Shown piece after piece: positions 19,679-39,824 of a DNA stretch of 64,000 nucleotides. The notes under the pieces are model-generated. The model did not search any database and was not told the DNA's origin. It worked only from the letters and a program-made list of their open reading frames with translations. How positions within the stretch are numbered: the first letter of the stretch is position 1; each line of letters opens with the position of its first letter. The DNA is from Fibrobacteria bacterium (GTDB taxonomy: Bacteria; Fibrobacterota; Fibrobacteria; UBA11236): positions 1 through 64,000 of the forward strand of contig JAYTSD010000028.1 of NCBI GenBank assembly GCA_043745805.1. The letters are read 5' to 3'. The position numbers and the translations under genes were made by a program.

Positions 19679-20907
19679 AAGCATATATGCGAGGATTATT
19701 TCTGATTTTGCTTTTAGGTAACATGCAATTGTTCGCACAGAGTTCATCGATTTTAAAAAAGGCAACGAAGTATTTGCCATCCTTAACGGAAATTGGTTTT
19801 GTAACAGGTGCGATTAATTGCTATGTGCAAACGGCCACCTTAGTTCGAGCCGTGAATAAAGAAATTGTTTTGGCTAAAAGTATGTCACGTAGACTTGATG
19901 ACCTTAAAGATGAAACGGATAAGATGCTAGGACAATTTGGTTCACTCTCGAATATTAATCCTTATAGCATGGATTCTTGGGCCGCATGGTTAGATAGAGC
20001 CAATGGCTTAGTTACCGAAGAAACCAGCGACTTCACTGATATTTTATTTAATAGTGTGCTTAAAACCTTGGATGAAAGAATGACAGTAGGCTTTTACAGT
20101 CAGGTGAAGCGAGGTCTTTCTTATGATGCTTCTCAAGGCCAAATTAAAGAGGTATTACGAGCATATTACTTAAGTCGAGATTATGAAAATAATCATGATA
20201 AAATTCGCAAGATAGCCTTAAATGCAAAGCGGCTAAGTCTCTTAAGTAAACAAAGCGAATTATCTTCAATTCAAGCGGAAATTATAACCACCAATGATCC
20301 CGATACAAAAAATTCGCTGAGTATAAGGTATCAAACACTTGTGGGAGATATTCTTCAATTAGAAGATGAAATAAGAGACCCTGCTGTGGGAGGAACAGTG
20401 CTTGATAGACAGATTTCTTTTTTGATGGATATGGCGCAAAACTTGGGAGGGGAGATAAGCACGGCATCGTCTGAATTGGATATGCATCAAAAAGATTTGG
20501 CAGACCTTAATGCAGAATGGGCTTTGGCTTCAAAGGATAAATTGCCGAAATCAAAAGATAGAAGCGTTTCTAATAAACCTGTCCCTATAATTAGGGATTT
20601 ATATAGCGCAACGGATGCGGATAAAGTCCCGACTCCTACAAATAATATTCCTAAACCCATAAAACAAAACACTTCGGAAACGTCATCACCAACTACTTTG
20701 GCCGACCTTTTGTCTCTACAAAATAAAATTGAGTTTAAAAGATTAGAGATGATGGAAAGTGCCATGCATATGGCTTTGAATGTGGCTCAGACAAAGGCTG
20801 CTCTGATTGCGGTGGATGCCTATCAAGCAGAGGCCAAAAGGAATCAGCGGAGTAATGTTCATTTTGAAGCTGAAAATTTGAGTAATGTGATTCAGCATGA
20901 AAAATGA
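19675..20907 (+). CDS. Secreted all-helical T4SS-associated protein (VirB5/TrbJ-like candidate)
   Basis: Signal peptide, coiled-coil character, translationally coupled within the tra operon. Confidence 0.6.
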   Translation: MKAYMRGLFLILLLGNMQLFAQSSSILKKATKYLPSLTEIGFVTGAINCYVQTATLVRAVNKEIVLAKSMSRRLDDLKDETDKMLGQFGSLSNINPYSMDSWAAWLDRANGLVTEETSDFTDILFNSVLKTLDERMTVGFYSQVKRGLSYDASQGQIKEVLRAYYLSRDYENNHDKIRKIALNAKRLSLLSKQSELSSIQAEIITTNDPDTKNSLSIRYQTLVGDILQLEDEIRDPAVGGTVLDRQISFLMDMAQNLGGEISTASSELDMHQKDLADLNAEWALASKDKLPKSKDRSVSNKPVPIIRDLYSATDADKVPTPTNNIPKPIKQNTSETSSPTTLADLLSLQNKIEFKRLEMMESAMHMALNVAQTKAALIAVDAYQAEAKRNQRSNVHFEAENLSNVIQHEK

Positions 20908-21253
20908 TTTCCCTAAGTTTTATCACCCAATAAAGACACCTTTGATTTAGAACACATCGATTTTACCCAATGTTTTTTTAAAATTTTTCTTTTTCTATTG
21001 CCATTAATCGCCAAAATTTGATTGTTTCAGGCAGATTCAAAGTTTGAAAAACCATTTTTGTAAGCAAAATGTATGAAGAAAATTTTCGCAAAGTATATGT
21101 ACTAAATACTTAAGAGTACGTGATCACTAATATATTACACTAGTAAAAAATCCTATTATGACAGGGATACCCTGAAGTCATTGCGTTATGGGGACGATGA
21201 ATAATTCATTAGAAAGCGAAAAAGGTTAGAATTATTAATCAATTATTTTTTTA

Positions 21254-21281
21254 TTGACATTTAAGAATTTATACATATATT
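21254..21281 (+). promoter_or_regulatory. Putative sigma70 promoter of the cargo cassette
   Basis: TTGACA (21254) N16 TATATT, ~40 bp upstream of the ATG at 21321. Confidence 0.4.
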
Positions 21282-21320
21282 TTTTTCAGTTCCGTTATAG
21301 CATTTAATTAAGGACAAAGT

Positions 21321-22004
21321 ATGCGACTCGTTTTGATGGCCCTTCTGGGTATTCCATTATTTATTTCTGCATTAACTTTAGACGATATACAGCAGGCGCT
21401 TGTATCCCATCCAGTAACTGATACGCTTGATATGCGAGTTGAAGTTGTTGCAGCGTCCGGTACATTTAGTTCTTCAACAAAAATGCATTTGATTACTAAA
21501 AGCCTAAATAAGACTTGGGTTGAATTAGAAAGTCCTATGGGAACCCAAAGATTCACTAAGAATGGTTTGCAGTACAAAGTAGAGGATGTTAAATCTGGCA
21601 AAGTTGTTTATCCGAATCAGGCCCCTATGGGTTTGAACTCCGTAGGTAATGTGACTAATCCGAATTCAGATATATTGAGGAAGGGGCAGTATACTCAGCC
21701 AGTTTCTAAGAGTGATGGTATTTTTGAATTAAAAATGATTATTGGTAGTGATACCACTGTAAAGGCAAGGATAGTCAAGTACGATAAAAATTTCAAACAG
21801 ATTGTTGGAATTGATGAAGTTTCCAAAGATGATGACACAACTAATACAATTATTAAATACAGCAAAGGGAGTTCTGGGGAGTTTCCCAAAAAAATTGAAA
21901 TTGTTATGCATTCCAAAGGGGCGGTTTCGAATGTAACTGTTTCAATTCTTAGCGCTATCAAACCAAAAAATCTTGGGGACGCTTTGTTTCAGGTGAATCA
22001 ATGA
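21321..22004 (+). CDS. Secreted beta-rich protein, LolA-like / outer-membrane lipoprotein-sorting fold candidate
   Basis: Signal peptide; beta-meander pattern ('NKTWVELESPMGTQRF', 'IVGIDEV', 'FPKKIEI'); ends 'LGDALF'. Confidence 0.5.
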   Translation: MRLVLMALLGIPLFISALTLDDIQQALVSHPVTDTLDMRVEVVAASGTFSSSTKMHLITKSLNKTWVELESPMGTQRFTKNGLQYKVEDVKSGKVVYPNQAPMGLNSVGNVTNPNSDILRKGQYTQPVSKSDGIFELKMIIGSDTTVKARIVKYDKNFKQIVGIDEVSKDDDTTNTIIKYSKGSSGEFPKKIEIVMHSKGAVSNVTVSILSAIKPKNLGDALFQVNQ

Positions 22005-22828
22005 TTCGCCGCATTCTTATTACTGCTCTGGCTCCTTTTATTTTATTATCGGGCTTGTCCGCTCAAGGCCTTTGGCATCTATCTGGGGTGGCTTGTAAGG
22101 TTGATAGCGGCAAGACTACATTTTTTTTCCTTGATCAAGTTGGATCAGATAAGGCCGCAAAAAATGGATGGCTTGGAGGTTACTCTCTTTCACAGGGTCC
22201 ACTATCAATAGATACCTTAATCTCATGGGCACAGTTCGGAGACCGTTTTAGTACGAATAGAAATCAGGAATGTATTGCTGGGGATTCGGGTAGTGTTTTC
22301 TCCACGGAAATCACTACTGGCAGTGGAGAAAAATCGAGATTTTCGAATGATGGTCATTGGAATAATTATAAGCTTTTTGATAATGGCGTTATTTCTTCTT
22401 CTTTTGATCTTCGATCTGCTTCTGGTTTAGGTTGGGAGTTCCCCAAAACCTCACCTGAAATAGGAAGTACTTCTATTTTTGATTCATCAGCTGAACTGTC
22501 TTGTCAAGTACCTGGTCCACAGGGAGAGAAATATACTGCGAGAGGAGTTTGGAAAACTTCAGTTCCAGTAAAAGTCAATATTAAATCTCGGCATTACGAA
22601 AATCCTGTAATGGCATATTATTTGGAAACACAATTTATTCCACAAAACTATCGTCGGGGATCAGCCACAATCTTATCCCAGCTTGAAGGGTTTCCTCAGT
22701 ATGTGAAGCGTAAATTTACAGGAAGAAAAATTTCCATTCTAATTCCTGGGACTGGTATTATTGCAAGCTTAAGCGAAGAAAATTCCAATGACGAGCGAAA
22801 ATGGAAAGTGGTCGTTTATGAATATTAA
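22001..22828 (+). CDS. Secreted hypothetical protein
   Basis: Signal peptide ending 'LSA'; start overlaps the upstream stop (ATGA). Confidence 0.7.
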   Translation: MIRRILITALAPFILLSGLSAQGLWHLSGVACKVDSGKTTFFFLDQVGSDKAAKNGWLGGYSLSQGPLSIDTLISWAQFGDRFSTNRNQECIAGDSGSVFSTEITTGSGEKSRFSNDGHWNNYKLFDNGVISSSFDLRSASGLGWEFPKTSPEIGSTSIFDSSAELSCQVPGPQGEKYTARGVWKTSVPVKVNIKSRHYENPVMAYYLETQFIPQNYRRGSATILSQLEGFPQYVKRKFTGRKISILIPGTGIIASLSEENSNDERKWKVVVYEY

Positions 22829-22888
22829 TTCGCAAAGTGTATTGTTATTTATTTCCCAAGTGCAAAAAATATGGATTGGAATACTCTC

Positions 22889-25800
22889 ATGAAGCGCATT
22901 TTTATTCTTTGTATCACTTTAGCATTTGGATGGACCCATGCTTGGAAACCCCAAGAACCAATAGGCAAAGTATTAATTATCATGGCCGCAGGAATTAATC
23001 CAAATACAGGGGACCTTTATAAATCTACTCCGGCGTCAAGGAAGAATCACAAAGGTGATTTACCATGCAGTGATGAAAGTGGGCATGCACATATTTTCAG
23101 ATCTTATGGGGTGACGAGTTTTTTAGAAAAAAATGTCGCTCGCTCGATCAATGAATTACATGCCCAAGCATTTCCAGATGCAAGCGGATCACCAATCGAA
23201 GAAGTACCTTGGTTGGCGTCTCGGACATTTTCCTTAGATCGCGAATGCGATGGTGATCGAACAACGTTCGTAGCAAAAGATGGAAAAGTAATTTGGGGAG
23301 TTGAAGCTTCGACAGGAGTTCATAACTATACTGTTAAAAGTTTTTTTGAGCAGGCAGTTATTCGATGGTACGAGGGAGAACTTCTTAAGTTTCAATCGAA
23401 TGACAAATCAGGAGACCCTGATGTTTTTAAATGGATTGGTGATTTTAAAATCGCGAAAGGTATTTATCCTTCGCTAACGGATATGCGTGCGGGGAGCCGT
23501 GAATTAGTGCCCTCTCGATATATTATCATAGCACATAGTATGGGAGGAAATACTACCAGAGAATATGTGCATTCACCTATTTATGCTGGTGATGTTGATA
23601 AATTAATCACTCTTGATACTCCACATGAAGGATCGTATCTCGTTGATATAAATAAAGAAATAGTAGATCACGACGCGCTAGCGATAAAAATAGTTTCCCA
23701 AGATATTGCTCAATTCGCATTAGGAGGACTAATTCTTTATTTGTCGAACAATAAGGTGGGCGATGATATAGGATGGGGAATAATTATTTCCACCGCGCTC
23801 ACTTCTTTAATAGAGCCGATTGCAAAAGTAACATTTGCAAATACATTATGCATGGGATATGGCTATAGCAACGGTGCTAACAGTTACTTGAGTCCAAGTA
23901 ATCCAGACCAAACTATTCAAAAACTTAATAATGATGTTACTGTAGGGAATGGATTTCGCCACCCCGCCTATCGAATTTTTCATAATGAAGGTTTGGTTTC
24001 ACCAGGAAATCCATCTTTGCTTATTGGAAATGCTGAGGGACCATTTGGACTTTTGTATCCTAAGGCATTTGAAGGGCTTCTAGCGACAACTTTTCATTCA
24101 GGTGTGCAAGATTATGTACGCACTCCTAATGAGCAAAAATTTTCTAATGCAATTCTTGCTGGTCTAATGGGTGGTGCGGCTCAGTTAAATTTTTCCAATC
24201 AAGGAACTATCGCGGTAAATGCCTCAAGCAGCAAGGGTAATGCAGTTAAAGCGTTCCAGCTTCCAGATGCAGACCTTAAGCGATATCTTTTTTCCCTTGA
24301 TGGCAGTGCAATCGTACCGGGAAGTTTTGAAGAGCTGCCGGGTGCACTTCCATCCCTTTTGTTTAAAGGTTGGATAGAGTCTGTATTAGCTAATGCAGCT
24401 TTAAATTCATTATCAGTACCTCAGCCATGGGTAAAGTGGTTGAAATGGCCTGCTTCAATGGCTATGGCATATGTACTTGAATCGAAGGCAGGTAAAGGAC
24501 AACGTGAAACTATAGGGAAAAATGACCAAGTGACCGCTGCGAATGCAAAATCTTGGACCGATTTTTTATCGTTGGATTTCTTAAAAGATTTCAGTCCGAT
24601 GCCTACTACTCATGATTATTCAACAGTACATTCAACGGATAAGTTAGAAACTCGCTCGATAAAAGATCCATTAGGAAATACTATCAGCAATGATGTTTCT
24701 TTTCTCGAGGATGCGCTTTGGGAAAAACCGTATGCAAACATGAGTAGTGTCGCATCTTCAGACAATATTTCACTTAATCTGGGGATTGTGGCAGGTGGGA
24801 AGTCTATATACCAAGTAAAACAATCAGATATAGTTTCTCCTAATAATGAAATCGATTTTACCAAGTTCAATTGGCAAGAACGAATTGGAGTTAAATCAGA
24901 TGAATGGGGGAAGGCTCCGGGCAGCACTATTGATGTTCGACATCCTAAAACCTATTTTTTACCACCAAGCCCTTTAGTTACAACAATGCCTGATGAGTTT
25001 CAATTTGTAGTTGATGACTTGCGACCAGATTTAATGCCTCTTTTTAGCATCGATTTTAATTATGGAAAATTTGTTTTGACTTGGAAGCTTAATTCTACTA
25101 CAGGTAAGTATGATGTAATTCGTCAGGCGTTTGGTGAGGCTGGTCCGACTACTATTCTGACAGGGGTTGCAAGTCCAATTGATTTTAAAGGAAATTGGAA
25201 AGTATCTCTGCTAGCAGATAAAATACTGGCTCAAGGCAGGCCATTAGCATCCGTATACAACGATGGTCAAAATACGATTTCGCTTTTTATGTTTAATAAA
25301 GCTGGAATGAGTAATACGCAAAGATTTTTTATCACCTTTCAGGCAACTCCTCCGTTAATTACTATGAATTGGCCGCTTCCAGATGTTGTTATTTCAGGAA
25401 CAAAACCACTTATTGAAGCGTCGGTAAATTTACAGGCCTATGCAAACTTGTTTGCCAATAAAGACAAAACATTTTTCAGAATTTATCCTCGTTCAACTAG
25501 TGCAGGACCCATTGATGGTGGCGCGGGAGTTGCGCAGATTCCTTTCGATAATGTAGCTACAGCGGATTGGGGCAAAAATGTATTTATACTAAAACATAAA
25601 TGGACTACTGGTTCAATCTCTCTAACTGGGCCTTTGTGGTTGGAGATTCAACTGGCTACACAGCAAGTCGATCCCATTACACATCTAGTTACCTCTCAAG
25701 GAGCAACGGAAATCCGTCGTATTCCTTTTTCTATAGATAATGTTCCGCCTGTACTTTCAATTTCACCTTCAAATCGAACCTGGAATTTAGTATCAAACTC

Positions 25801-28800
25801 ATCTTTGCGATTTGACTATAGTTTTCAGGATCCGCCACTGCAAGTAATGACGACTTCTAGGTGGCGTATTTTCGATGCAGCGAATATAAAAGTTTTTGAA
25901 TCCCAACCACTTCCACGATATTCAGGGCAAACCTCAAGTTTTTTTTGGGATGGAAAAAATACTTCAGGAATAAGTAAAGAAGGGTTATATACAGTAACCT
26001 ACGAGGGATTTGATCAAACCGTAACAGACAAAACAACTTATGCGCAAGCCCAAAATCTGCAAACTTTAGCAACAGGGCCTGTTAACGCTGCATTTGAAAC
26101 CGCTTGGAACGGATTAAATACAAAGGTAGGGTTTAACCTTGGAAAGGCCCAATCTCAAGTGTATTTGGATTTAACGCCACCATCATTTGTAATGGATAAT
26201 TTTACAGCTTTGGTTTCTTCGGCAAACCGACAAATAATTCATTTTCGAATTGCTGATGCTAGTTCCATACTTCCCAGTGCGCAAAGTAAAGTTACTTGGA
26301 CATTCACTCGAAAATATCTAGGTGGCACAGAAGTCATACCCGTTGAAATGTTACCTATTATTACAACATCGTCTTTAGGTAACGCATCTGTTTTAACATT
26401 AGAAGAATCCCTTGATGAAGGGGGATGGAAGCTTAATGATGGTAGTTATGATTTAAGTGTAACGGTTACCGATGAAGCGGGCAATATTAATGAAGATAAA
26501 ACCAGATTGTGGTCTTTTCGAGTTGATCGTAAAGCTCCGGTAATCGACGGTCTTAAGACTAATGAATTAACTTTTCAATCGAAATCAATGTCATCTAATC
26601 CACAGGTATTGTTTGATATAACTGAACCGGATGAAGATTTAGCCAATCAAGAAACAAATCCTTCCGCATTTCTTACGCGTATGAAGGTAACTTTAGTTTC
26701 TCCCATAGCAGGCGCTCCCATATTAGCCTTGATTCCATCGTACTCTGCTGAAACTAAATTTTCAACACCTTTGCCAAAGGATTTACTTGCAACGGGTAAG
26801 GGTGTTTGGACAGCAAAAGTTGAAGTTTCCGATGCGATAGGTAACAAATCTGCTACCTCACATCAGTTTTGGGTCGATTTACGACCATCTGAAATTAGCT
26901 ATCCGAAAACGAGTGATGCTACACCTACAGCCGTTGTTGAAGCATCGCAAACGGTTATTCGTGGTCTTGCATTGAATCCAGCTCTTTCAGGGAAATTGGA
27001 GTACTATGAATTGGTTTGGCGGCCGCTAGGACAGACTACTTGGAAAACCACAGGAATAACTGTTCCTGAATCACGTCGTGGAAGTGCCGGTATAGCTAAT
27101 CGATCTTATTTGGAACAATCAATAGATGGAGTGTTAGGGTATTGGAATCTTTCTGCATTAGCTACGGGAAGTTATCAATTAGGTTTAAAAACTCATCAAA
27201 AGGAAGAAAATATTGATGGTTTGGTCATAAAGGAAATCCTTTATACTCCCTCTACTGTCCTTCCTGATTTCACTGTAAGCTTAAAAGGTTTGCCTGCATC
27301 AGGAACATCTTTTAGTGCGGGATCACCTATGGATTTAAGTCTTTCTATCGCTCCAAAAGGGGTTTGGCCAGTTTCCAAAGGGGATGGAGTAAGTGCTGAG
27401 CGGCATTTTCGGGCAGATATTTTTCTAGCGGATGCTTTGGGTCAACCAATGGCAGAGTTTCCTACTCAGTCTTTAAAGGCATCTTATTTTTCCGGTGTGC
27501 CAGTCAACAAAACCGCTGCAGGGGTTTATCTCTGGCATGATGGTGATGGCACTTGGAATCTTCAAACCAAAAATATTGCTGATAATCTCCAGTTTTCTAT
27601 TGGATATAATTCATTAGAACCGATGTCGTTTGATTGCGTAGCGCCAATGTCTTGCGAAGAAAATACGATCATGGAAAGGACAATGAATCTTCCTCAGGAA
27701 AAATCCGTTATAGTAAACCGTAATTTAACGATTTTAGTAAATAAAGGCAGTAATGGTTTAATGACTTTTAAATTGCCCTCACGTGCAATATTTTCTGTGA
27801 TGAAACTGTTGCCTACAGATGCCCCGGATGGTACCACAAATCTTTATCCGGCTTCCACATTTTATTTAGGACAAGATGCTAAGACCACATTCTCTAATGG
27901 TATTGCAGGGATGGTAGTACCACCTTTTGCTCTGGATCCAATGCCTTCCTCTTATAATTTTAGTTGGAATGGTTTTCTCCAGACTAATGGTTTTCCTGCC
28001 CCAGGTAAAGCGACTGTTAAAATTGAAGTTGTCGATGAAGAAACCGGATTGACTCGCGAGGCGGCAGGCACCATACTAATTGGTCAAACTCCTTTAAAGT
28101 TGGAAGTACCCACCTCAAGTCCTACAACACTTTTGTTTGAGCCTGGAAGCGATTTGTCTCGCATAACTTTTAATTATGGAATAACCGGTCAGGCAGGATT
28201 GATAACGGCAGGTATAAAAGATGCAAGTGGTAAAGTGATTCATCTCTTCTTTCAAGACCAGCCTCGTCAGCCCAGCTCAAATAAACTCGCTTATTCAGAA
28301 ACATGGAATGGAATATGCAATCAAGGCGATATGAACGGATTATCGGTTAAAGCTGATCAAACGCTCACCTTTTTCGTGGAAGCTAAAGGGCTTCCTACTG
28401 CCACAGTTACTTTAGCCTTCCCAGTACAATCGGTAAACTGGCAAAAAGGTGGTTCAGGATATGATTTCAAGGTAGACGGTGGCACTATTATAGGTGACAA
28501 GACTTATATAAAAGCCCAACCCTTGTATCGTCTCATGGCTGAAGCTAAAGGTGATTATGCTGATGCTACTGTCGTTAATTATAATGTCAACTATTCAGGA
28601 GAACAACAAGGAATACAATATGAATCCGAACGTTATAATTTATGGATTCAGCGCAAACGGAATACATTTAAGGCGACCGTATTTGTATGGTTCCGATCTA
28701 GTGAGGCGTATTTTAGAGATACCCCATGGTATTTAACATGCGATAAAAGCAGTGTCCCTGACTTCACGGATAGATTCGATAAATTTGAAGTCACCCTAAA

Positions 28801-31800
28801 TAAGGGAGAAGAAATCGATCTAAATATGATTTACGGATCGAAAGGAAAAGATTTTGTTTTCAGATGTCTTGGTGATAATTGTCAAGAAGATCTTTTAAGA
28901 ACAGTGTCCATTGCTGTGCTGCCGGGATCCATTGATGAACTAATCCCTTCGGGATCCTATGCGAACAAAGTGGCACAATGGGATCGGCTCGAAACCAAGG
29001 CTCTTTATAAAATTAATAATATCCAATTATTCAATAATAAAATTTATCAAAACGGGCCGACTCCGAATGTAGATGACCCAAGAGGCTGGACGCTTGGTGC
29101 AGGATCAGTTGCCTATCAACCTGGAGATTGGTTCAGAAACACTGTGAAAGTCGATCCTGCTAATCCTTATAAGGTGGAAGACCATTGCAAGTTCAAAGTG
29201 GATCCCACAAGTCACGAAGGCACTCCATTGGTGGATGACAAAAATGACGGTGTTTTTTCCTCCAAGAGTGATAAATGCGAGGATAATACACAGTATGATC
29301 CGGAAGATAATTTGCTCAATTATTCTTTCGATTTTGGGAAAGATAATGGCAGTTGGCCCTATGATAATAAAGATCCTACTACTTGCACACCGGATCATAA
29401 TCATATAAAGGTAGGCTTTATTTTGAAGCTTAAGGTTCCAAATGAATATTGGGATGCACCCTTTGGTTATAATAACCAAGCCAATAAATCTATGCGTTGG
29501 GATCCCAAAAACACTTATCTATTTGGGCAGGGTACGGGTATTTTCTCTAAAGACGGTTGGAACAATAGGCAAAACAAAAAAGGCGATGACCCTGAAGATT
29601 ACTTTGGATTCATTAATCCTTTTGAACAGGCTAGTTTTAATTTGCTCCCTTATAGTAAAACTCCATTTTTAGGGGCAAACGGAATTATTTCCGGAATTCC
29701 TTATTTTGCCATCCACCCTCTTAGTTTTGGTGACGAAGAATATTCACAAAGTATGCCAAATTCGCGATTGGAAATTGGATTCAATGGCAAACCAAATGGC
29801 AACTCATCGCAATTCGATTTACAAATTGGTAGATCTGAATGTAAGGGCTTGGCTATCGAATGCAAAGAAAATAATTCAGTAAATGTACTGTCCCTCAATA
29901 GCAAGCTTAATCAATGGGACAATGGAAGAGTTACTCTGAAGGATTTTCAATTTGGCTATTCCGAGCTCGCTAACTCAACATTTTTAGGATCAATTGCCGG
30001 AGCATTATTCGGAAGTGCGAGTAGTGCTATCGTGACCAATCATAGTTATAACTGGTTTTTCCGATTAACCTTACGCGCGTCGTTAAATGAATCAGCTGCA
30101 AAAACGAAAAGTATGCTATGGCCAAATGTAGGAGCATTGCCAACTCCAGTTAAAAATGTATTAATTGAACCTTATTGCCAAAAATTATATTCTTCCGTTT
30201 CCAATCTTCACTATGGAGTTGGTGATGGAATAACCAACAGTGGAAGTTATACCACTCTTTTAAATCTCGGTGGTCCGTATGTTAGAGCAGATGGATTTTT
30301 CAAAAACCCCTCCGATCCAGATTTTATTAATCCTGAAAATGAACCTGTCGAATTGTCAAAAATAAATAATGCGTCATTAAATTCAGGAAATGTTCCTCTT
30401 ACACTTAATCCTACCACCAAAATTTTGGAGTTCAGAGATTATGTTCATTTTATAAAACCGACAGGAAGCGTATCATATTCGAATATTCAAGCTGGAGTTG
30501 AGTTTGGAAAAAATGTGACAGTAGCAACTGCAATACCAAGTTTGGCACCGCTAAGAACGGAACAAGAAAATGGCAATAATGTTGTAGTGTTTTCGGGTGG
30601 GAAAACTATTCCTTGGTCAGGCAAAGATGATGAAAATATGGCTAATCGTGATCTTGATGGCGATGGTGTAAAAGGCGAAGAACCACTTAACTTTGCAGAT
30701 GACGATGTCGATAATTTTGTGGATGAGGATGTTCCTGGGGCATTATCTTCATTACTTTCTTTTACTCCTGGCTTGATAACTGAAAATATTAACTTCAAAC
30801 AAAAGTTATACGAACCTAGTTTAACCGTAAGGGGAAAGGGTGCTCACGCACTCATTCAATATTCATCAGCAACACCTAGTATACCTAGTATAAATCCGCT
30901 AGTATCGGGAGTAAATTTGGCTTTTTCGGTAAGATACCCTGATGGTACCGCACGTGACGATATTTCTGCATCAATACCCACGGGTAATTTTAATCCTATG
31001 TTGGGAACGATTAATATTAAACACAATAATTTTAATTGGACAAAGAGCAAAGAGTTTGTCGCTTTAAAAGGTACAGTACCAGGGCATTATGATCTCGAAT
31101 ATGTAGATAAAGATGGAAGAATACAACTTTTTGGTTCTTCTATGAAGAAGGTTACTACAGAACGAATATTGGGATATTTACCCATTGAAAAGCTACAAGG
31201 TAGAACCAGTTTGTTTCTTATTAATTATTTGGACAATGGTAAGGTGGAATACCGTCAATTGGATGTTGAAGTAGGAACTCCCGTTTTACCGACAGCCGTG
31301 ACAGATGTATCGTCAGAATTCGGTGAGGCAAATGTTCATTTTGAAGCGGGAGTATTGACGCAAACACAGGCCGTTACCGTACGCGTAACTAATGTTGCTG
31401 ATGCGGGTCTGGCTTTACGTAACAACCTTTCCGCGGTTGGGCCAGTAATTGAGGTATTACCTCATCAGGTTTTTGATCCAACAAAACCCCTACCACAAAT
31501 TTTTATGCGCATACCATTTTTTGTATTAGCGGGAAGAGATCCTAGTAGTATTCGACTATTCAAACCAGATGGAGACAATTTAGTGGAGTTGTCAAATCAA
31601 CAATATGCATTTTATATAAATGATGGTACCCAGGTTTGTGTTGGCAATGCATCTGGAATTTGTAGCACATTTGACATAATGCAAATCAGCGCTAGTACAC
31701 CCAGTTTCAGCCATTTTGTGGCTTTAGAAAAATTTGCTACTCAAACTCAGCCTTTTACATTGAGTGTAACTCCTGACAGAAGTATGGATCCCGTAAGGCA

Positions 31801-34360
31801 AGTAACCTTAAAAGGAATTTTGCCTACAGCTCTCAATCTATATATTGATGATGATTCTGTTTTCACGGAGGACAATGATGTTACCCCTCCGCAAAGCTTG
31901 ACCACTGCATGGACAAAAAATTCAGCAGGAGATTATGTAACCAACATTACAGTGCCAGGAAAGAGAGTATTTTGGATTCAGGCAGTTCCCAATGCGGTTA
32001 ATTCACATGTATCAACTTTCAAAATCGAAAGAATGGATGGATTTACTTTCACCAATATTTCGGATGAAAAAGTTTATTTAGGAACACTTGGCGGTAATAG
32101 TGCTTATATGAGCTTTGCATCTAATCGGGAAGGAAGCTTGGAGATATTCATCTATCAAGGTGAACAACTTATGGCTCGATTAGATAGGCCTTTGGTGTCT
32201 GGATATAATTACACTGAAATCAAAGCAATGGTGGGTTCTACACTTCTGCCTTTAGGTACTTTTAGGACGGCAATTCGGGCTCAAAGTTTTGATGGAAGTC
32301 AAATTTCCATCGATGGACCACAACTTATTGTTGATGGCGCAGCACCCGAAGCTTTATTGAGCGCATCATTGATGGGTACACCGGAAAATCTAACAGCGCA
32401 AATAAAAGGTCTAATGCGTGATTATGGCGGATTGGATTATGGCGAATTACAAGTACGCTTAGGTGCGGATATTTTGGATTGGCAATACTTTTTTGATAAA
32501 ACATTTGAACTGAATTCTGCAATCCCCCTAGCAAGTCTTCAAGCACATTGTGGTAGTCCATTGCAGATAACACTTTCTGTACATGATTTTGCCGGAAATA
32601 TCACTAAGAAAATAGTGACCCTCGATTTAACGGATATGACAAAGTCTTATTGCTCTAATTATCTGGCGGTAACCCCTATTTTGGAGAAAACAGTCAGGAA
32701 TTGCGATGGAACCTTTACCGCTTATTTCGCATATAATAATCCTAATCCCTCTTACACGGAAATACCCGTTGGTGATCGAAATTACTTCCTTTATCAAGGG
32801 AATAGCCAAGTAGAGTTAGGTCAGGGTACGGTGTACTTAGCAGGAGCGCATAGCGGAAACTTCTCGGTTACCTTTGATGGCGGAGATTTAATTTGGCATC
32901 TTGATGGCAATACCGTTACGGCTTCAGGACGTAATTTGAATCAATCCTGCAATCTCAAAGATATTGCCCCCATTTTGGAAAAGGTTACTCGTGATTGTAG
33001 TGGTATCTATCATGCCATATTCGGTTATGATAATTGCAATAGGTCCGTGATCACTTTAGCACCTGGCTTGGATAATGGATTTAAATATAATGGTCAAACA
33101 AACGCTGATTTGGGCCAAATCACTCGTTTCTTACCCGGCCATCATTCTGCGGCTTTTTCTATAGCCTTTGATGGTACAGATTTGATATGGACATTAATGG
33201 GGAAAACCTCAAAAGCCAATAAATCAAGGGCTGTCGAACAATGCTCAGCATTGCCTATTCGGCCTTTCCTTGTAAAAGTGGAAAAGAATTGTAAGGGTGA
33301 TTATCTAGCAACCTTTGGATATTCGAATCCAAATGCTATGGCTATATCCATACCTGCAGGAAACAAGAATGGCATTAATTATAATGGACATTGCAATGCC
33401 AATCTTGGACAGCCAATAGTTTTTCAACCCGGTCGTATTGATAGTGCCTTTACGGTAACATTTAATGGCGGTGATTTGGTATGGGAAGTAGACTGCCGTG
33501 GTGCAACGGCTGCTATTCGTAACGCTTATGAATCTTGTCCGACTAGACAAAATGTGCAACCTATAATCACTCGCGTGGACATTGTTCAAGCCGGTGTTTT
33601 TCGAGCTTGGTTTGGCTATAATAATCCAGGCCAATTGAAGGAACAGTTCAACAAAGGCACCTTAAATCAATTCACCTATCGTGGGGAAACGGTGATGGAT
33701 TTTGGCCAACCAGAATCTTTCGATCCGGGATTAAAGACAGCCGTATTCTCAATAGACTATGATGGCTCACCATTAACATGGAATCTACATGGAAAATCAA
33801 TAACCGCGACAATACCCGCTATTAATGGAACGGATTTAGGAAATCCTACAAGCAAGGGTTCCTATAGTTTTATCGGTGATACATTGAAACTCATAGGTGC
33901 TGGAACCGGATTTAAAGGGAGCTCCGATCAGGGATATTATGCCAATATTCCCTTTCACGGTGATGGTGAAGTATCCTTTCGTTTGGGAACTGTAACTGGA
34001 TCAACAACTGCAGATATAGGTATAATGTTAAGAGAAAATCTTACGGCTTCTGGAAAGGCATTATATTTAGGCGTGAATGCAGCTGGAAAGGCTTTTTTAT
34101 ATGCTCGTTCAGCAGCTTCAACCTCACCAAAGGTGACTCAAGGAACGCTTCCTGCACTTGGGGGGAAATGGTTAAAGTTGCGCAAGAGTGGAACAACTTT
34201 TACAGCTTATGAATCTGTTGATGGGGATGAATGGAAATTGGTAGGTAGCGCAACAGTTACCTTGCCTGTGGATTTCATAGCCGGTTTTGCTATCAGTTCG
34301 GGATCCACTACCACTTTGGCCACAGGAAAAGTTTCTAGCTTGACATTAACTACCAAGTAA
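22889..34360 (+). CDS. Giant secreted multidomain protein (~3,820 aa): N-terminal lipase-type alpha/beta-hydrolase, Ig/FlgD-like domains, ZU5-like domain, 4 repeats, C-terminal ConA-like/DUF1349-like domain
   Basis: Signal peptide MKRIFILCITLAFGWTHA; 'IIAHSMGG' nucleophile elbow and 'LITLDTPHEGS'; 'DNVPP', 'DLTPP', 'DRKAP' Ig linkers; 'WDGKN...GLYTV'; four P(I/F)(L/I)...AxF(G/A)Y..N repeats; C-terminal 'GDGEV...GIMLRE...WLKLRKSG...SVDG'. Confidence 0.85.
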   Translation: MKRIFILCITLAFGWTHAWKPQEPIGKVLIIMAAGINPNTGDLYKSTPASRKNHKGDLPCSDESGHAHIFRSYGVTSFLEKNVARSINELHAQAFPDASGSPIEEVPWLASRTFSLDRECDGDRTTFVAKDGKVIWGVEASTGVHNYTVKSFFEQAVIRWYEGELLKFQSNDKSGDPDVFKWIGDFKIAKGIYPSLTDMRAGSRELVPSRYIIIAHSMGGNTTREYVHSPIYAGDVDKLITLDTPHEGSYLVDINKEIVDHDALAIKIVSQDIAQFALGGLILYLSNNKVGDDIGWGIIISTALTSLIEPIAKVTFANTLCMGYGYSNGANSYLSPSNPDQTIQKLNNDVTVGNGFRHPAYRIFHNEGLVSPGNPSLLIGNAEGPFGLLYPKAFEGLLATTFHSGVQDYVRTPNEQKFSNAILAGLMGGAAQLNFSNQGTIAVNASSSKGNAVKAFQLPDADLKRYLFSLDGSAIVPGSFEELPGALPSLLFKGWIESVLANAALNSLSVPQPWVKWLKWPASMAMAYVLESKAGKGQRETIGKNDQVTAANAKSWTDFLSLDFLKDFSPMPTTHDYSTVHSTDKLETRSIKDPLGNTISNDVSFLEDALWEKPYANMSSVASSDNISLNLGIVAGGKSIYQVKQSDIVSPNNEIDFTKFNWQERIGVKSDEWGKAPGSTIDVRHPKTYFLPPSPLVTTMPDEFQFVVDDLRPDLMPLFSIDFNYGKFVLTWKLNSTTGKYDVIRQAFGEAGPTTILTGVASPIDFKGNWKVSLLADKILAQGRPLASVYNDGQNTISLFMFNKAGMSNTQRFFITFQATPPLITMNWPLPDVVISGTKPLIEASVNLQAYANLFANKDKTFFRIYPRSTSAGPIDGGAGVAQIPFDNVATADWGKNVFILKHKWTTGSISLTGPLWLEIQLATQQVDPITHLVTSQGATEIRRIPFSIDNVPPVLSISPSNRTWNLVSNSSLRFDYSFQDPPLQVMTTSRWRIFDAANIKVFESQPLPRYSGQTSSFFWDGKNTSGISKEGLYTVTYEGFDQTVTDKTTYAQAQNLQTLATGPVNAAFETAWNGLNTKVGFNLGKAQSQVYLDLTPPSFVMDNFTALVSSANRQIIHFRIADASSILPSAQSKVTWTFTRKYLGGTEVIPVEMLPIITTSSLGNASVLTLEESLDEGGWKLNDGSYDLSVTVTDEAGNINEDKTRLWSFRVDRKAPVIDGLKTNELTFQSKSMSSNPQVLFDITEPDEDLANQETNPSAFLTRMKVTLVSPIAGAPILALIPSYSAETKFSTPLPKDLLATGKGVWTAKVEVSDAIGNKSATSHQFWVDLRPSEISYPKTSDATPTAVVEASQTVIRGLALNPALSGKLEYYELVWRPLGQTTWKTTGITVPESRRGSAGIANRSYLEQSIDGVLGYWNLSALATGSYQLGLKTHQKEENIDGLVIKEILYTPSTVLPDFTVSLKGLPASGTSFSAGSPMDLSLSIAPKGVWPVSKGDGVSAERHFRADIFLADALGQPMAEFPTQSLKASYFSGVPVNKTAAGVYLWHDGDGTWNLQTKNIADNLQFSIGYNSLEPMSFDCVAPMSCEENTIMERTMNLPQEKSVIVNRNLTILVNKGSNGLMTFKLPSRAIFSVMKLLPTDAPDGTTNLYPASTFYLGQDAKTTFSNGIAGMVVPPFALDPMPSSYNFSWNGFLQTNGFPAPGKATVKIEVVDEETGLTREAAGTILIGQTPLKLEVPTSSPTTLLFEPGSDLSRITFNYGITGQAGLITAGIKDASGKVIHLFFQDQPRQPSSNKLAYSETWNGICNQGDMNGLSVKADQTLTFFVEAKGLPTATVTLAFPVQSVNWQKGGSGYDFKVDGGTIIGDKTYIKAQPLYRLMAEAKGDYADATVVNYNVNYSGEQQGIQYESERYNLWIQRKRNTFKATVFVWFRSSEAYFRDTPWYLTCDKSSVPDFTDRFDKFEVTLNKGEEIDLNMIYGSKGKDFVFRCLGDNCQEDLLRTVSIAVLPGSIDELIPSGSYANKVAQWDRLETKALYKINNIQLFNNKIYQNGPTPNVDDPRGWTLGAGSVAYQPGDWFRNTVKVDPANPYKVEDHCKFKVDPTSHEGTPLVDDKNDGVFSSKSDKCEDNTQYDPEDNLLNYSFDFGKDNGSWPYDNKDPTTCTPDHNHIKVGFILKLKVPNEYWDAPFGYNNQANKSMRWDPKNTYLFGQGTGIFSKDGWNNRQNKKGDDPEDYFGFINPFEQASFNLLPYSKTPFLGANGIISGIPYFAIHPLSFGDEEYSQSMPNSRLEIGFNGKPNGNSSQFDLQIGRSECKGLAIECKENNSVNVLSLNSKLNQWDNGRVTLKDFQFGYSELANSTFLGSIAGALFGSASSAIVTNHSYNWFFRLTLRASLNESAAKTKSMLWPNVGALPTPVKNVLIEPYCQKLYSSVSNLHYGVGDGITNSGSYTTLLNLGGPYVRADGFFKNPSDPDFINPENEPVELSKINNASLNSGNVPLTLNPTTKILEFRDYVHFIKPTGSVSYSNIQAGVEFGKNVTVATAIPSLAPLRTEQENGNNVVVFSGGKTIPWSGKDDENMANRDLDGDGVKGEEPLNFADDDVDNFVDEDVPGALSSLLSFTPGLITENINFKQKLYEPSLTVRGKGAHALIQYSSATPSIPSINPLVSGVNLAFSVRYPDGTARDDISASIPTGNFNPMLGTINIKHNNFNWTKSKEFVALKGTVPGHYDLEYVDKDGRIQLFGSSMKKVTTERILGYLPIEKLQGRTSLFLINYLDNGKVEYRQLDVEVGTPVLPTAVTDVSSEFGEANVHFEAGVLTQTQAVTVRVTNVADAGLALRNNLSAVGPVIEVLPHQVFDPTKPLPQIFMRIPFFVLAGRDPSSIRLFKPDGDNLVELSNQQYAFYINDGTQVCVGNASGICSTFDIMQISASTPSFSHFVALEKFATQTQPFTLSVTPDRSMDPVRQVTLKGILPTALNLYIDDDSVFTEDNDVTPPQSLTTAWTKNSAGDYVTNITVPGKRVFWIQAVPNAVNSHVSTFKIERMDGFTFTNISDEKVYLGTLGGNSAYMSFASNREGSLEIFIYQGEQLMARLDRPLVSGYNYTEIKAMVGSTLLPLGTFRTAIRAQSFDGSQISIDGPQLIVDGAAPEALLSASLMGTPENLTAQIKGLMRDYGGLDYGELQVRLGADILDWQYFFDKTFELNSAIPLASLQAHCGSPLQITLSVHDFAGNITKKIVTLDLTDMTKSYCSNYLAVTPILEKTVRNCDGTFTAYFAYNNPNPSYTEIPVGDRNYFLYQGNSQVELGQGTVYLAGAHSGNFSVTFDGGDLIWHLDGNTVTASGRNLNQSCNLKDIAPILEKVTRDCSGIYHAIFGYDNCNRSVITLAPGLDNGFKYNGQTNADLGQITRFLPGHHSAAFSIAFDGTDLIWTLMGKTSKANKSRAVEQCSALPIRPFLVKVEKNCKGDYLATFGYSNPNAMAISIPAGNKNGINYNGHCNANLGQPIVFQPGRIDSAFTVTFNGGDLVWEVDCRGATAAIRNAYESCPTRQNVQPIITRVDIVQAGVFRAWFGYNNPGQLKEQFNKGTLNQFTYRGETVMDFGQPESFDPGLKTAVFSIDYDGSPLTWNLHGKSITATIPAINGTDLGNPTSKGSYSFIGDTLKLIGAGTGFKGSSDQGYYANIPFHGDGEVSFRLGTVTGSTTADIGIMLRENLTASGKALYLGVNAAGKAFLYARSAASTSPKVTQGTLPALGGKWLKLRKSGTTFTAYESVDGDEWKLVGSATVTLPVDFIAGFAISSGSTTTLATGKVSSLTLTTK

Positions 34361-34369
34361 GGAGTTGAG

Positions 34370-34822
34370 ATGGTCGGTTTGTTTAGAGGTATGGTTCTGT
34401 GTTCTGTAATAGCAACTCTTTTTGGATGCGGTAAAGAAACTGAACCAGAACCCTTACCCCCCTTAGTAGTCTCCGAGCTAAAAGCGTGTTGGTATATCGT
34501 TGAAAGTAAATCTGGTTGTGTTGAGATGTGCTTCGGGGGGGGGGGCACTTATTATACCCGTTCAAATAATGCTTCATCTAAAGGTGGTGAAGGACTAGGA
34601 AAGTTCAAAGTAACGGGAAATTTAGTACAAATTCGATTCCAATCTAGGTCACTCGTGAATTCGTATATTGACTCTGTGTTTATCCAATGGAACTTTTTTA
34701 TTCAAAGCGATTCGCTTAAAGATTCTAACGGGGATAATATGTACATGCGTTCAGATTCCACCCACAATTGCGGCCCGCACTGGCTGATATTTTCAAAGCC
34801 TGCTGATTGGGATAGTGTTTAA
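34370..34822 (+). CDS. Lipoprotein (candidate immunity or accessory protein)
   Basis: Lipobox LFG-C at aa ~17-20; AAGGAG RBS; 9 bp after the giant gene; contains a G11 tract. Confidence 0.75.
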   Translation: MVGLFRGMVLCSVIATLFGCGKETEPEPLPPLVVSELKACWYIVESKSGCVEMCFGGGGTYYTRSNNASSKGGEGLGKFKVTGNLVQIRFQSRSLVNSYIDSVFIQWNFFIQSDSLKDSNGDNMYMRSDSTHNCGPHWLIFSKPADWDSV

Positions 34823-34848
34823 GTCTTCATAAAAACAAAAGGGAAATA

Positions 34849-35577
34849 GTGCAAACATTTTTACTTCTTACATTGTTCTTTGGAATTCCATTTAACCCCT
34901 TTATTTTGCAAAATAAACAAACACCCTCAATGATTATTCAAGAATATGCCGGAGTCCAATGGGAGACGACTTTTGATTGGATAAATGATACTGTTATGAT
35001 TAAAAAATACAGTCGGCCAGCAAAAAATATAACTATAAGCGTTACCTATATAATGAACAAAAAAGGTTATGTCCAAAGATTAGAAGGGGTGAATTCAACT
35101 ATTCAAACAATATCTTATGCGTATGATAGCAGTAATAATTTGTCATCGGTTCAAAAGGACGAGTTTGTTTTTTATAAAAACTCAGAAATTGATTCTGTTC
35201 GCCAAAACATCGGGCAAGATTTGGAAATGTTTAAGATTAGACGTGCAAATGACATGATTCAATCCATAGTTAAATACACTAAAAATTTTGCGACCACAGA
35301 TACATATAAAGATTCGATTTCATATACTTATCAATCCGACAAATATATTTTTGCAAAAAATGAAAGTTCTAAAAAAATTGATACTGCCTTTTTTGAAAAT
35401 GGATTGCTTGTGAAATTGTCCTTCCCAAATGATTTTGACGGTGGTTCCATTTATACTTTTACTTACCCTAAAAGCGTAAATATATTGTCTAAGGAATATC
35501 ATAAAAAAAATAAAAGGATCTCATTACAATCGATTATTAAATCAATTCAAGGGCGCAATCCGATCATGCTTGATTGA
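34849..35577 (+). CDS. Secreted beta-hairpin-rich protein with basic C-terminal tail
   Basis: Hydrophobic N-terminus; 'YAYDSSNNL', 'YTYQ', 'YTFTY' YD-like strands; tail 'HKKNKRISL..IQGR'. Confidence 0.6.
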   Translation: MQTFLLLTLFFGIPFNPFILQNKQTPSMIIQEYAGVQWETTFDWINDTVMIKKYSRPAKNITISVTYIMNKKGYVQRLEGVNSTIQTISYAYDSSNNLSSVQKDEFVFYKNSEIDSVRQNIGQDLEMFKIRRANDMIQSIVKYTKNFATTDTYKDSISYTYQSDKYIFAKNESSKKIDTAFFENGLLVKLSFPNDFDGGSIYTFTYPKSVNILSKEYHKKNKRISLQSIIKSIQGRNPIMLD

Positions 35578-35888
35578 GTGAAGTGCTGTGACCTACATTC
35601 CGACACCCTCCTGACCACTTTTTGGGTTAAGCCCATACATCCCACTGTAATCCCCACATTTGTGGCTGTTGATTTAAGCAGAGGTTAATGGGTCATCAAC
35701 ATTTTTCCGGGTAGTTCTCGTATTGATTTTGGATGCATTTTTCAATTCGAAAAAACAAGACAGGTCAAAAATCAAACCGTAATTCTTTTTTAACTCGAAT
35801 TAATCTTGTATTTAATCATTATTTAACTCAAAAACCCAAACTCAATAAATAATTCTTAAAAAATACAGCAACCGAAGTGGTTTTGCTT

Positions 35889-35914
35889 TAATTAAAATAG
35901 TATTTAAATACTAT
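35889..35914 (+). promoter_or_regulatory. ICE operator-like motif, copy 3 (second tra operon)
   Basis: TAATTAAAATAGTATTTAAATACTAT, 17 bp upstream of the ATG at 35932. Confidence 0.7.
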
Positions 35915-35931
35915 TAATATAAAGTGAAATT

Positions 35932-36870
35932 ATGTTTTACCTCGGCTCGACACTCAATCACCAATCTCACAAAAAAGCAATAATCATTTCAGCATTTTTA
36001 ATTGGAAGCATCCTAGCTATGCCAGTAATAGCTGATCCAGGAGTAAATGGTTCATTCAGCTTAAACGAAACAGTGAACACAAAAAAATCCATTCGTAAAA
36101 TATGGAGCAACTTCTTAGCAGGCTATCAACAAGCCCGTAATGCTGCACAGTCCATGGTTCGCCAGATGCAGCTCACAGCGAGCTTGGCTAATTCCATGGA
36201 GCAAAATCTAATAGCCTGGGAAAGCGTCGCAAAACGCACGGAAGCACTTTTACATGCTGATATCTGGGATGAAAATCCAATCACAGAAATAGAAAAACTA
36301 GAAGAGAATCTTTTTCAAAAATCCGATGACTTGCTTTATAACCGAATTCCCAATGCCCGCCAAAGTTCTAAGAACTTAAATAAAGTCCGTCGTGATTGGG
36401 TTAATGGTCTTGGTTGGGGAGATGACCCTGTGCCTGGTACAGTAGATAAATCACTTCGTGAAGCACTTGGTTTCATAGCATTAAGCCCAGGGCAAAGACC
36501 ACAGCAATCAAGAGATAAAACCACTTTCGATATTCGTAATGGTGCAATAGCCAAATCAGGAGCAAGACAAGATCAAATGGTTTATATGGCAGACAATACC
36601 GATGCGCATTTATCCGCATTAGGTACTTCGCTCGCCAAATTAGAAACTTCCGATCAAAAAACCATCTCTGATATGAATGTGCAACTTTCCGAAAATGATT
36701 TTGTGCAAGGACAAATGGAGGTGAGGCAGAATATGGATAAACTTGAACTCTATACGCATATCCTCTTAACAAAAGCTTCTGATTATAACCGTATGGGTCT
36801 TGCCGCTTATGCAACTCTTCAACCCCTTTTGCTTTTATCTGATGAATTAGAAAGACAGAGGGGCAGATGA
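35932..36870 (+). CDS. Secreted helical T4SS-associated protein (paralogue of 47167-48114)
   Basis: Signal peptide; 'YQQARN...QNLIAWESVAKR...LFQKSDDLL' aligns with the 315-aa protein. Confidence 0.65.
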   Translation: MFYLGSTLNHQSHKKAIIISAFLIGSILAMPVIADPGVNGSFSLNETVNTKKSIRKIWSNFLAGYQQARNAAQSMVRQMQLTASLANSMEQNLIAWESVAKRTEALLHADIWDENPITEIEKLEENLFQKSDDLLYNRIPNARQSSKNLNKVRRDWVNGLGWGDDPVPGTVDKSLREALGFIALSPGQRPQQSRDKTTFDIRNGAIAKSGARQDQMVYMADNTDAHLSALGTSLAKLETSDQKTISDMNVQLSENDFVQGQMEVRQNMDKLELYTHILLTKASDYNRMGLAAYATLQPLLLLSDELERQRGR

Positions 36871-37946
36871 AAAAGTTATTGCATGTCACTCTTTCATTTT
36901 TAAAAAAGTTTTCAATAATCATTCTCTTAAATTACGGATTTGGATTTTCAGAAACCGATCAAACCACTGCGCCCCTTGGTCAATTTTTCGATCCTGACAA
37001 TGCGGAAAATATCAATAAAGTTCAATCAGGAGCGCAAACGGCTAAGGATGCAAAAAAGGGGAAAGACCTTGTGAGCCAAGGGAAATATAAAGACTTAGCT
37101 GCGGATTTATTTCTGAAATACCAGAACTCAAAAGTGGGGCTGATGACGCTTATCCGCAAAGTTCAACAAAAGACTTCGGATGTCATTCAAAAGGCTTCGG
37201 AGCGCGTAGATAAATGGCGTACAACTGTTCCAAAAATAAAATCATATACACAGAAAACCATTCGCTATACGGATGACACCTATAATTTCGCCAAGACTTT
37301 TGAAATGTCCGACCTATGGGATATAGACAGAAACTTTTCCAAAGAAATGGAATGGAGACTCAAGCAAGGCCGTCGACTGGGGCTTTCCATTTGGGATTTT
37401 CTGATTTCACGTATTCAAAGAGATGATTTTTTAAAAGGTATAGAGAAAATCCTTTATCCAGATTATACGGTTGAGTTAAACAAATCCGCATTACATGGTT
37501 TTCAATACGATGATAAACCTTCGGAAAGTGAAAAGGTTCCCATTTTCATTATCCATGAATGCCTTGATGTTTTAAACACTGTACAGCAAATGGCAGAAGC
37601 CGAACTTTCTCCTTCTGAATTATCACCGACTCTCACTAAAGAACAATTTGATACCCATCGTATTCGCGAAGCGCTATTCGATCCAAAATCAGGTTACACC
37701 GACCAGGTGGCACTTCGGCAAGACATACTCAATAAGCAATATGAGCTTTCAACACGCTTATCCATTGTTCAAGATAAAATTGCACGCTTAGAAATTCTTT
37801 GGGGAAAACTGGCAGTGCAAAGACTTGAATCTAAAGAGAGAAATACCTCAGCCATTGCAGGAGAAATAAACAAACTCACCGGAGTGGAATTAAACCCCGA
37901 TGCCTGGTTACTTGAAAAATTTGGATTAAAGGACCAAACACCATGA
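36867..37946 (+). CDS. Secreted helical T4SS-associated protein
   Basis: Signal-like N-terminus, coiled-coil character, overlapping start/stop codons in the operon. Confidence 0.6.
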   Translation: MKKLLHVTLSFLKKFSIIILLNYGFGFSETDQTTAPLGQFFDPDNAENINKVQSGAQTAKDAKKGKDLVSQGKYKDLAADLFLKYQNSKVGLMTLIRKVQQKTSDVIQKASERVDKWRTTVPKIKSYTQKTIRYTDDTYNFAKTFEMSDLWDIDRNFSKEMEWRLKQGRRLGLSIWDFLISRIQRDDFLKGIEKILYPDYTVELNKSALHGFQYDDKPSESEKVPIFIIHECLDVLNTVQQMAEAELSPSELSPTLTKEQFDTHRIREALFDPKSGYTDQVALRQDILNKQYELSTRLSIVQDKIARLEILWGKLAVQRLESKERNTSAIAGEINKLTGVELNPDAWLLEKFGLKDQTP

Positions 37947-39822: not shown

Positions 39823-39824
39823 TT

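Follow-up and report, generated by a model that had tools for sequence, protein, structure and literature searches.

We analysed a stretch of 64,000 nucleotides (nt) from a Fibrobacteria bacterium (assembly GCA_043745805.1, contig JAYTSD010000028.1, positions 1 to 64,000; hereafter the window) and, within it, a five-gene cassette built around a giant exported protein that begins with a lipase-like domain. All five genes encode exported proteins and lie co-oriented on the plus strand, exactly where they had first been placed from the sequence. They are a 227-amino-acid (aa) open reading frame (ORF) at 21321-22004, whose product is a LolA/LolB-fold, presumably periplasmic partner; a 275-aa ORF at 22001-22828, an exported protein that is not conserved; the giant at 22871-34360, 3829 aa long from the first ATG or 3823 aa from the ATG at 22889; a 150-aa lipoprotein ORF at 34370-34822, the best immunity candidate for the window copy; and a 242-aa exported ORF at 34849-35577, a probable passenger of low GC content (0.31). 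The giant gene is present as one copy in the source genome.

Domains of the giant protein

Members of the giant's family are exported proteins of 3,000-6,000 aa with a signal peptide, an N-terminal hydrolase, an immunoglobulin-like (Ig-like) stalk and a variable carbohydrate-binding-like tip. The window copy starts with a signal-like N-terminus. Next come a conserved P-x-E motif and an alpha/beta-hydrolase domain, which has helical insertions and reaches to about aa 620 (22943-24748, plus strand, as are all features of the giant below). The motifs AHSMGG and LDTPHEGS, from which a lipase-type start had been predicted, begin at aa 221 and aa 248, and the lipase fold was recovered both by the predicted model and by profiles. 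A match to PGAP1 fell just short of the cut-off (E 3.4e-5, 24.2 bits against 24.3), and the matching Protein Data Bank (PDB) profiles were family I triacylglycerol lipases, the Burkholderia type being closest (E 3e-6). The predicted structure, with a predicted local distance difference test (pLDDT) score of 68.6 and a poorly predicted part at aa 478-576, aligned to lipases with Z 16.2 and to Tle4 (PDB 4r1d) with Z 13.3 and a root mean square deviation (rmsd) of 4.2 over 289 aligned residues at 12% identity. Foldseek gave no match for this model at E 0.001 (best E 1.4e-3), but the broader aligner did. Lipase activity of the giant is predicted.

Ser223 is the predicted nucleophile, accompanied by His581 and the candidate acid Asp249. 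In 59 sequences with the serine intact, which were picked on HSMGG, Asp249 is conserved in 59/59 and His581 in 57/58. Because Asp249 becomes Asn in 16/19 proteins that have lost the serine, it is the likeliest acid, as assigned by conservation; position 443, which is Asp or Glu in 45/57 sequences, is the alternative. The original prediction also placed hydrophobic helices behind the lipase. Helices are found, but in the window copy they are only moderately hydrophobic, with a maximal 19-residue Kyte-Doolittle value of 1.49 where 49/59 family members reach 1.6, and they are insertions inside the hydrolase fold; a transmembrane anchor after the lipase was rejected. The lipase domain is 44% identical to that of the closest giant, found in genome G260, and the two giants are 36% identical over aa 1-3245. 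A whole-length word search for homologues of the giant returned nothing, a candidate-limited result that the other homologue searches contradict.

The stalk (24749-31280) is conserved, carries Ig-like domains (Big_13, E 3.5e-9; FlgD_ig, E 8e-6) and is collinear with that of 16 other giants. The best-conserved block of the family follows (31283-31720) and ends in the motif [ST]FSxF; aa 2801-2900 are 29-45% identical in 15/16 giants. The piece of it that was tested had no Pfam match, and there is no His ahead of the FSxF motif. The block may resemble the autoproteolysis site of ZU5 autopeptidases, and the giant may cleave itself there.

Similarity to the relatives stops at about aa 3245, beyond which the window copy has a different tip. 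It comprises four beta-rich repeats of about 98 aa that are confined to this copy (32663-33835, with a DNA repeat spacing of 294 nt) and a lectin-like C-terminal tip (33848-34357) with a weak match to DUF1349 (E 0.051); no solved relative of the tip was found. The long stalk originally predicted is present as an Ig-like stalk, and the lectin-like tip is a tentative assignment. Tips of the relatives match DUF2341, LamG (E 1e-14 to 1e-18) and, weakly, CBM_3 (E 0.002). The gut giants end in a shared conserved basic tail of about 70 aa, from which the window copy is free, and among them the tip is the most conserved region.

The last 120 aa of the window giant gave no NCBIfam match and no type IX secretion system (T9SS) signal, and T9SS sorting-domain models matched 0/12 giant C-terminal pieces. 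SprA is present in the source genome, and T9SS export has been proposed for F. succinogenes enzymes (PMC6851124). The export route of the giant is presumptive.

Upstream arrays, partner genes and the serine-lost clade

The evidence on how the family varies comes from the gut genomes. The layout there is repeated units of a lipoprotein of about 300 aa followed by a truncated N-terminal copy of the giant, and further downstream a lipoprotein, the full giant and the LolA-like gene. Upstream arrays of truncated copies were present in 7/16 loci first fetched, that is in 7/12 with an intact catalytic serine, and many more were found later. The long copies stop at 750-830 aa and the short ones at about 250 aa, just past the nucleophile. 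Compared with the full gene of the same locus, the long copies are mostly 20-50% identical over aa 1-550 in 4/6 cases and higher in 2/6, and near the stalk junction the truncated copies are 70-100% identical to it; genome G216 has exact matches of 572 nt and 395 nt at this junction. In G134, the first 250 aa of an upstream copy are 94-100% identical to the full-length giant of G159, with lipoproteins 84-100% identical, as against 14-60% between the upstream unit and G134's own giant and 24-50% for its own lipoprotein.

A lipoprotein of about 300 aa lies directly upstream of 76/84 lipase starts, which were located by HSMG patterns with overlapping loci included, and in 5 of the 8 others the same place holds, by eye, a different lipoprotein-like gene. 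The identities of lipoprotein and lipase are correlated (rho 0.57, partial 0.55, 0/2000 permutations) across 32 distinct pairs with a lipoprotein of at least 270 aa and a lipase ORF of at least 600 aa, some of which are kin and not independent. As a control, the lipoprotein was compared with the adjacent conserved stretch in 32 pairs, giving a rho of 0.28, a value lowered because some control windows are cut by contig ends. These sequence comparisons indicate that recombination exchanges the lipase at the front end along with its partner lipoprotein.

The catalytic serine has been lost in 16/40 long proteins, which form one sister clade. These Ser-lost giants are intact at 3,600-4,100 aa and keep the stalk and the LolA-like gene. 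The lipoprotein of about 300 aa is upstream in 1/20 Ser-lost loci, 4 of which have no full upstream gene in view, and no truncated copies were seen in them. The acid candidate, as given above, has mostly changed with the serine, and is kept in all Ser-intact sequences. The lipoproteins that do flank Ser-lost giants presumably belong to a common Fibrobacter major-domain family. Such giants possibly serve as a structural or adhesive filament. The clade is widespread (L174-L193, G089, G142, G161, G233), and many genomes carry both forms.

The LolA-fold protein is the constant partner of the giant. A LolA-like partner had been proposed for the 227-aa protein, and its AlphaFold model (pLDDT 88.5) agrees: it aligns to P. 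gingivalis LolA3 with Z 14.4 and rmsd 4.4 over 194 residues, the top rows all belong to the LolA/LolB superfamily, and the predicted model has the LolA-type incomplete beta-barrel with a helical lid. Its family adjoins the giant in 13/16 loci and in 17/17 Ser-lost loci whose downstream flank was visible. Its role would be that of a carrier, as set out below.

The 275-aa and 242-aa genes, counted as module parts at first, are not conserved. The 275-aa protein has no Pfam or NCBIfam match. The corresponding slot in G247 is filled by a 290-aa gene, but its BLASTP similarity (E 0.93) is not significant for homology, and 296 genomes yielded nothing further; a weak DUF3108-like lead scored under the recognition threshold. 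By position it is a second, weaker candidate for immunity or an accessory role. The 242-aa gene was rejected as a module part, having no homologue in 31 other family genomes besides its low GC content.

The 150-aa lipoprotein has a lipobox-like LFGC and belongs to a cysteine-patterned family. Within the window's own clade it has expanded in tandem next to the giants: three homologues in a row follow giants in G286 and four in G282, one stands immediately before the G260 giant and, by eye, homologues come after giant-like 3' ends in G247, G256 and G248. For neither this family nor that of about 300 aa was a solved relative found. When the lipase domain and the 150-aa lipoprotein were modelled as a complex, the score was 0.00 and gave no verdict, and the result was counted neither for nor against. 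The 150-aa protein is the likeliest immunity protein of the window copy, a call that could fall either way.

An 11-G run at 34535-34545 in the 150-aa lipoprotein gene is the sole run of at least 9 G or C in the 3.95-Mb genome, and its homologue in G260 has a frameshift at a 9-G run located elsewhere in the gene; the runs possibly reflect phase variation, or chance. Beside gut giants, a small lipoprotein with an outer-membrane beta-barrel-like gene recurs (L161, L163, L039, L057, L099), the latter gene matching PF13505 (E 6e-5) in 1/3 tested.

On a stalk tree of 46 sequences and 371 columns, the window giant and those of G260, G247, G286 and G282 form one clade with support 0.995; the G250 giant was omitted from the stalk profiles. 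Within this environmental clade, the window copy stands as a single allele. The lipoprotein of about 300 aa occurs in 83/151 genomes of the gut family (f6, gut Fibrobacteraceae). Distant relatives of the giant are found in a few Bacteroidales and Saganbacteria/WOR-1 records. The Saganbacteria/WOR-1 proteins (L150; P0141, P0143, P0147) measure 760-5,300 aa and have a related N-terminal lipase, and one has a LolA gene nearby (PF03548, E 5e-9). The system may not be confined to Fibrobacterota.

The cassette within the conjugative element

The element around the cassette is an integrative and conjugative element (ICE) with genes for a VirD4-like protein (2573), TrbC (12340), VirB4 (14152), three TrbL, a CagX-like protein, TrbI and an integrase (48432) next to tRNA-Gly (49601-49676). 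A 21-bp operator-like repeat occurs at 1377, 6634, 12261 and 35889; with the pattern used, all four copies are inside the ICE and none elsewhere in the genome. The last one (35877-35914, plus strand) restarts the downstream half of the tra cluster. Upstream of the cassette the best match has 7 mismatches in 21 positions, in agreement with the predicted absence of the operator there. The cassette was said to sit between two tra operons. It does lie inside the conjugation cluster, but the genes flanking it are adjacent in 3/3 related ICEs with both in view (G259, G028, G072), and it is therefore an insertion that splits one cluster.

With no fixed place in related ICEs and no ICE operator, the cassette does not behave as a core module. 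The lipase domain was matched in 79/296 genomes of the phylum, including 67/151 of the gut family, while the window VirB4 was matched in 11/296 and 0/151 and the Pfam TraG/VirB4 model in 10/296 and 1/151, respectively. Only two giant loci are shown beside VirB4, the window and G260, in different slots; among 16 giant loci fetched with flanks, G260 alone adjoins VirB4, its giant being directly upstream of a pilin-VirB4 operon. For G256, whose ICE and giant-like 3' end stand on different short contigs, the linkage could go either way. Since the lipase is frequent in gut genomes where VirB4 is nearly absent, the linkage of giant and ICE is incidental. The mobile element merely happens to carry one copy of the giant, and the notion of an ICE-borne system was not supported. 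The ICE copy matters mainly as evidence of horizontal mobility of the module, and the giant is more interesting at the level of its family than as ICE cargo.

The proposed promoter, a sigma70-like TTGACA-16-TATATT on the plus strand at 21254-21281, is present, matches the consensus at 11/12 positions and is the top-scoring promoter-like site in 20800-36200. It remains a candidate because such sites are not enriched over chance in this region (34 seen, 46 expected). Assembled contigs from two runs, possibly the assembly's own source, cover the whole stretch with zero differences, and the window sequence is present in sediment metagenomes; no RNA dataset is among those listed as containing it. 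Neither a length change at the 11-G run nor a joint skipping the cassette was seen in contigs of four runs from one study, contigs that drop rare variants and in which two independent runs are thin at these places.

Several other features of the element and its surroundings were recorded. A copy of the tRNA-Gly 3' end with an integrase fragment lies at G000:C45:189554-198080 (L194), followed by genes for a secreted metallopeptidase-like protein and WYL, MBL-fold, E1-E2-JAB and HNH proteins; this may be the left end of the ICE with a defence island, its join to C28, the contig of the window, being putative. A perfect 31-nt inverted repeat (12110-12140 and 13422-13452, 1,281 nt apart) encloses the pilin gene and the next gene, and the segment is possibly invertible. 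The three TrbL/VirB6 paralogues stand in tandem (37943-41783). A PLD-family nuclease-like gene at the contig start (54-803), DrmC-like under the cut-off, is possibly defence cargo of the ICE. Outside the ICE, 54527-59499 encodes two neighbouring proteins, one of 1376 aa that has a T9SS sorting domain and one of 281 aa; C27 carries a pair paralogous to them, and the ICE of G259 a homologous pair.

Interpretation and comparison with known systems

Our preferred reading, to which we give a probability of about 0.64, takes the cassette as one allele of a reversed polymorphic lipase toxin system with lipoprotein immunity in the Fibrobacterota. The Sec-exported giant would have an N-terminal phospholipase or lipase carried by a long Ig-like stalk, and the carbohydrate-binding-like tip would anchor it to the cell, a polysaccharide or a neighbour. 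The lipase would attack membranes of competitors, probably related cells, and the cognate lipoprotein would shield the producer. The LolA-fold protein may ferry hydrophobic parts, such as the lipase lid or the immunity lipoprotein, across the periplasm. Gut species would obtain new specificities by homologous recombination from the upstream arrays of lipoprotein and truncated N-terminus, with exchange points in the nucleophile block (about aa 200-250) or where the stalk begins (about aa 550-800), and the window copy would be a single environmental-clade allele inserted into an ICE as cargo. Toxicity and immunity are predictions from genomics alone. Evenly balanced, in our judgement, is the wider proposition that the main inter-strain weapon of the Fibrobacterota may be a surface filament of about 400 kDa, with an N-terminal lipase re-armed from upstream tip-plus-immunity arrays, a private LolA-fold carrier and a catalytically dead sister kept as a structural or adhesive filament.

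The carbohydrate-binding-like tips of the relatives would also suit an adhesin of the surface or a biopolymer esterase, subject to antigenic variation, which binds cellulose or other polymers, varies its N-terminus against phage or host antibodies and has the lipoproteins as structural partners. The large Ser-lost clade, retained intact with its LolA-like partner, means that the scaffold is useful without the enzyme, and ZU5 domains occur, according to PMC3482391, in surface proteins that have adhesion modules and lipases. We nevertheless regard this explanation as unlikely: the arrays and the co-varying lipoprotein accompany the intact serine, and it is the enzyme domain that varies, while the tip is what gut giants conserve most. 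A nutritional lipase whose adjacent lipoprotein is a private folding chaperone, not an immunity protein, seems less probable again. Family I lipases use a lipase-specific foldase, the closest solved sequences are of this kind, and a private chaperone would likewise co-vary with its enzyme. However, 0/34 lipoproteins match any Pfam family, lipase chaperones included, at E 0.01; two unrelated lipoprotein families (hhalign probability 0.1%) hold the same role; and the extra lipoprotein copies without a lipase copy (e.g. G104 and G228, and the tandem 150-aa copies in G282 and G286) suit a hoarding of immunity better.

Very improbable is a part in the conjugation machine, be it as mating-pair adhesin, in entry exclusion or in membrane remodelling, although the cassette stands inside the tra cluster in the window and before the pilin-VirB4 operon in G260. 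It is missing between the same genes of three related ICEs, lacks the ICE operator, occupies different slots in two ICEs and belongs to a family found mostly where VirB4 is not. On these grounds a core function in the ICE was rejected, and the suggested role in mating-pair attachment was not supported. Homologues mostly outside ICEs and without the partner genes had been named as a finding that would speak against the cassette; they are mostly outside ICEs, but the LolA-like and lipoprotein partners travel with the giant.

A number of observations weigh against a reversed toxin system or its immunity part. The window copy has neither an upstream array nor a 300-aa lipoprotein. Its 150-aa lipoprotein family is mostly at the 3' end of the giant, far from the lipase-coding end; a related subfamily adjoins Ser-lost giants (G142, G161, G174), and a related subfamily of gut genomes pairs with the beta-barrel gene, which does not suit simple immunity. 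Nearest-neighbour agreement of the pairs is modest (13 against 9 of 32), and the counted lipase starts overlap. The serine was lost in one clade, so the Ser-lost contrast represents one evolutionary event. No outer-membrane export signal was matched in 12 giant tails, and the usual DGxV acid is absent from the Ser-intact family. The conserved His40 is Ala in the window copy only (1/59 sequences) and position 443 is Asn there; the window lipase may therefore be weakened, and it is possible, though unlikely, that it has decayed altogether.

If true, the reversed toxin system would be a mirror-image class of polymorphic toxins and would serve the dominant cellulose degraders of the rumen in kin discrimination, while ICEs would spread single alleles among relatives from the environment. 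It would account, in a way open to testing, for how strains of cellulose degraders compete in rumen and hindgut, and would suggest candidate functions for two lipoprotein families that lack annotation and for an orphan LolA-like family. It would also supply dozens of lipase/inhibitor pairs from nature.

The original prediction reached toxin and immunity through the layout of Tle/Tli pairs of type VI secretion systems (T6SS). Comparative genomics makes a toxin-immunity reading much stronger than the window by itself does. The candidate immunity gene of most relatives stands upstream and is of a different family from the lipoprotein behind the window giant. With Tle4/Tli4 (TplE; PDB 4r1d), as described in PMC9846239, the giants share a PGAP1-like alpha/beta-hydrolase with nucleophile elbow, His and large helical insertions beside a lipoprotein. 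They differ in the signal peptide, the giant fusion, an [AGS]HSMGG instead of a TxSxG nucleophile, unrelated lipoproteins and the lack of a VgrG/PAAR neighbour. Tle membership was rejected on account of the signal peptide and the missing T6SS context: no T6SS gene is among the 42 window proteins, the rest of the genome being unsearched for T6SS. Family I.1/I.2 triacylglycerol lipases (Burkholderia, Proteus) are the best sequence and Foldseek matches, and compared with them the giant's domain is twice as long, has no DGxV acid, has an invariant Asp after strand beta6 and is fused to a stalk.

Rhs, CdiA and MafB toxins (PMC3482391) have a long conserved body, a variable enzyme tip, an adjacent cognate immunity gene and exchangeable cassettes. 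In the giants, aa 1-550 are variable and the junction and body conserved, the lipoprotein is adjacent and co-varies, and standalone tip cassettes with partner genes occur in the family, not at the window copy. Classical polymorphic toxins are described with C-terminal tips (PMC3482391 and PMC12419801); the variable enzyme domain of the giants is N-terminal, its cassettes are upstream, the tips seen are all variants of one lipase family, and there are no RHS or filamentous haemagglutinin repeats. We found no description of the giant family in the literature searched, which did not cover subscription papers; the supplement of PMC3482391 may list such proteins among ZU5 surface proteins.

[quoted passage not shown] S. 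aureus TslA has an N-terminal phospholipase neutralised by upstream variable immunity lipoproteins (PMC10730906), and the giants share with TslA/TilA and with TslM (PMC13560087), as far as the available parts of these papers go, the N-terminal lipase with a C-terminal trafficking part, a polymorphic toxin domain and immunity lipoprotein genes upstream in variable tandem copies. The giants have no LXG-like C-terminal helical domain and no DUF576 immunity match, and their tip is beta-rich. They further differ in the Gram-negative host, a signal peptide in place of LXG/T7SS, a length of 3,000-6,000 aa with stalk and tip, arrays with truncated toxin copies, the LolA-fold partner and lipoproteins without a Pfam match. 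Within the literature searched, published accounts of reversed lipase toxins were limited to Gram-positive T7SS, and a reversed system with upstream toxin cassettes would extend polymorphic toxins to a new phylum and a new export route.

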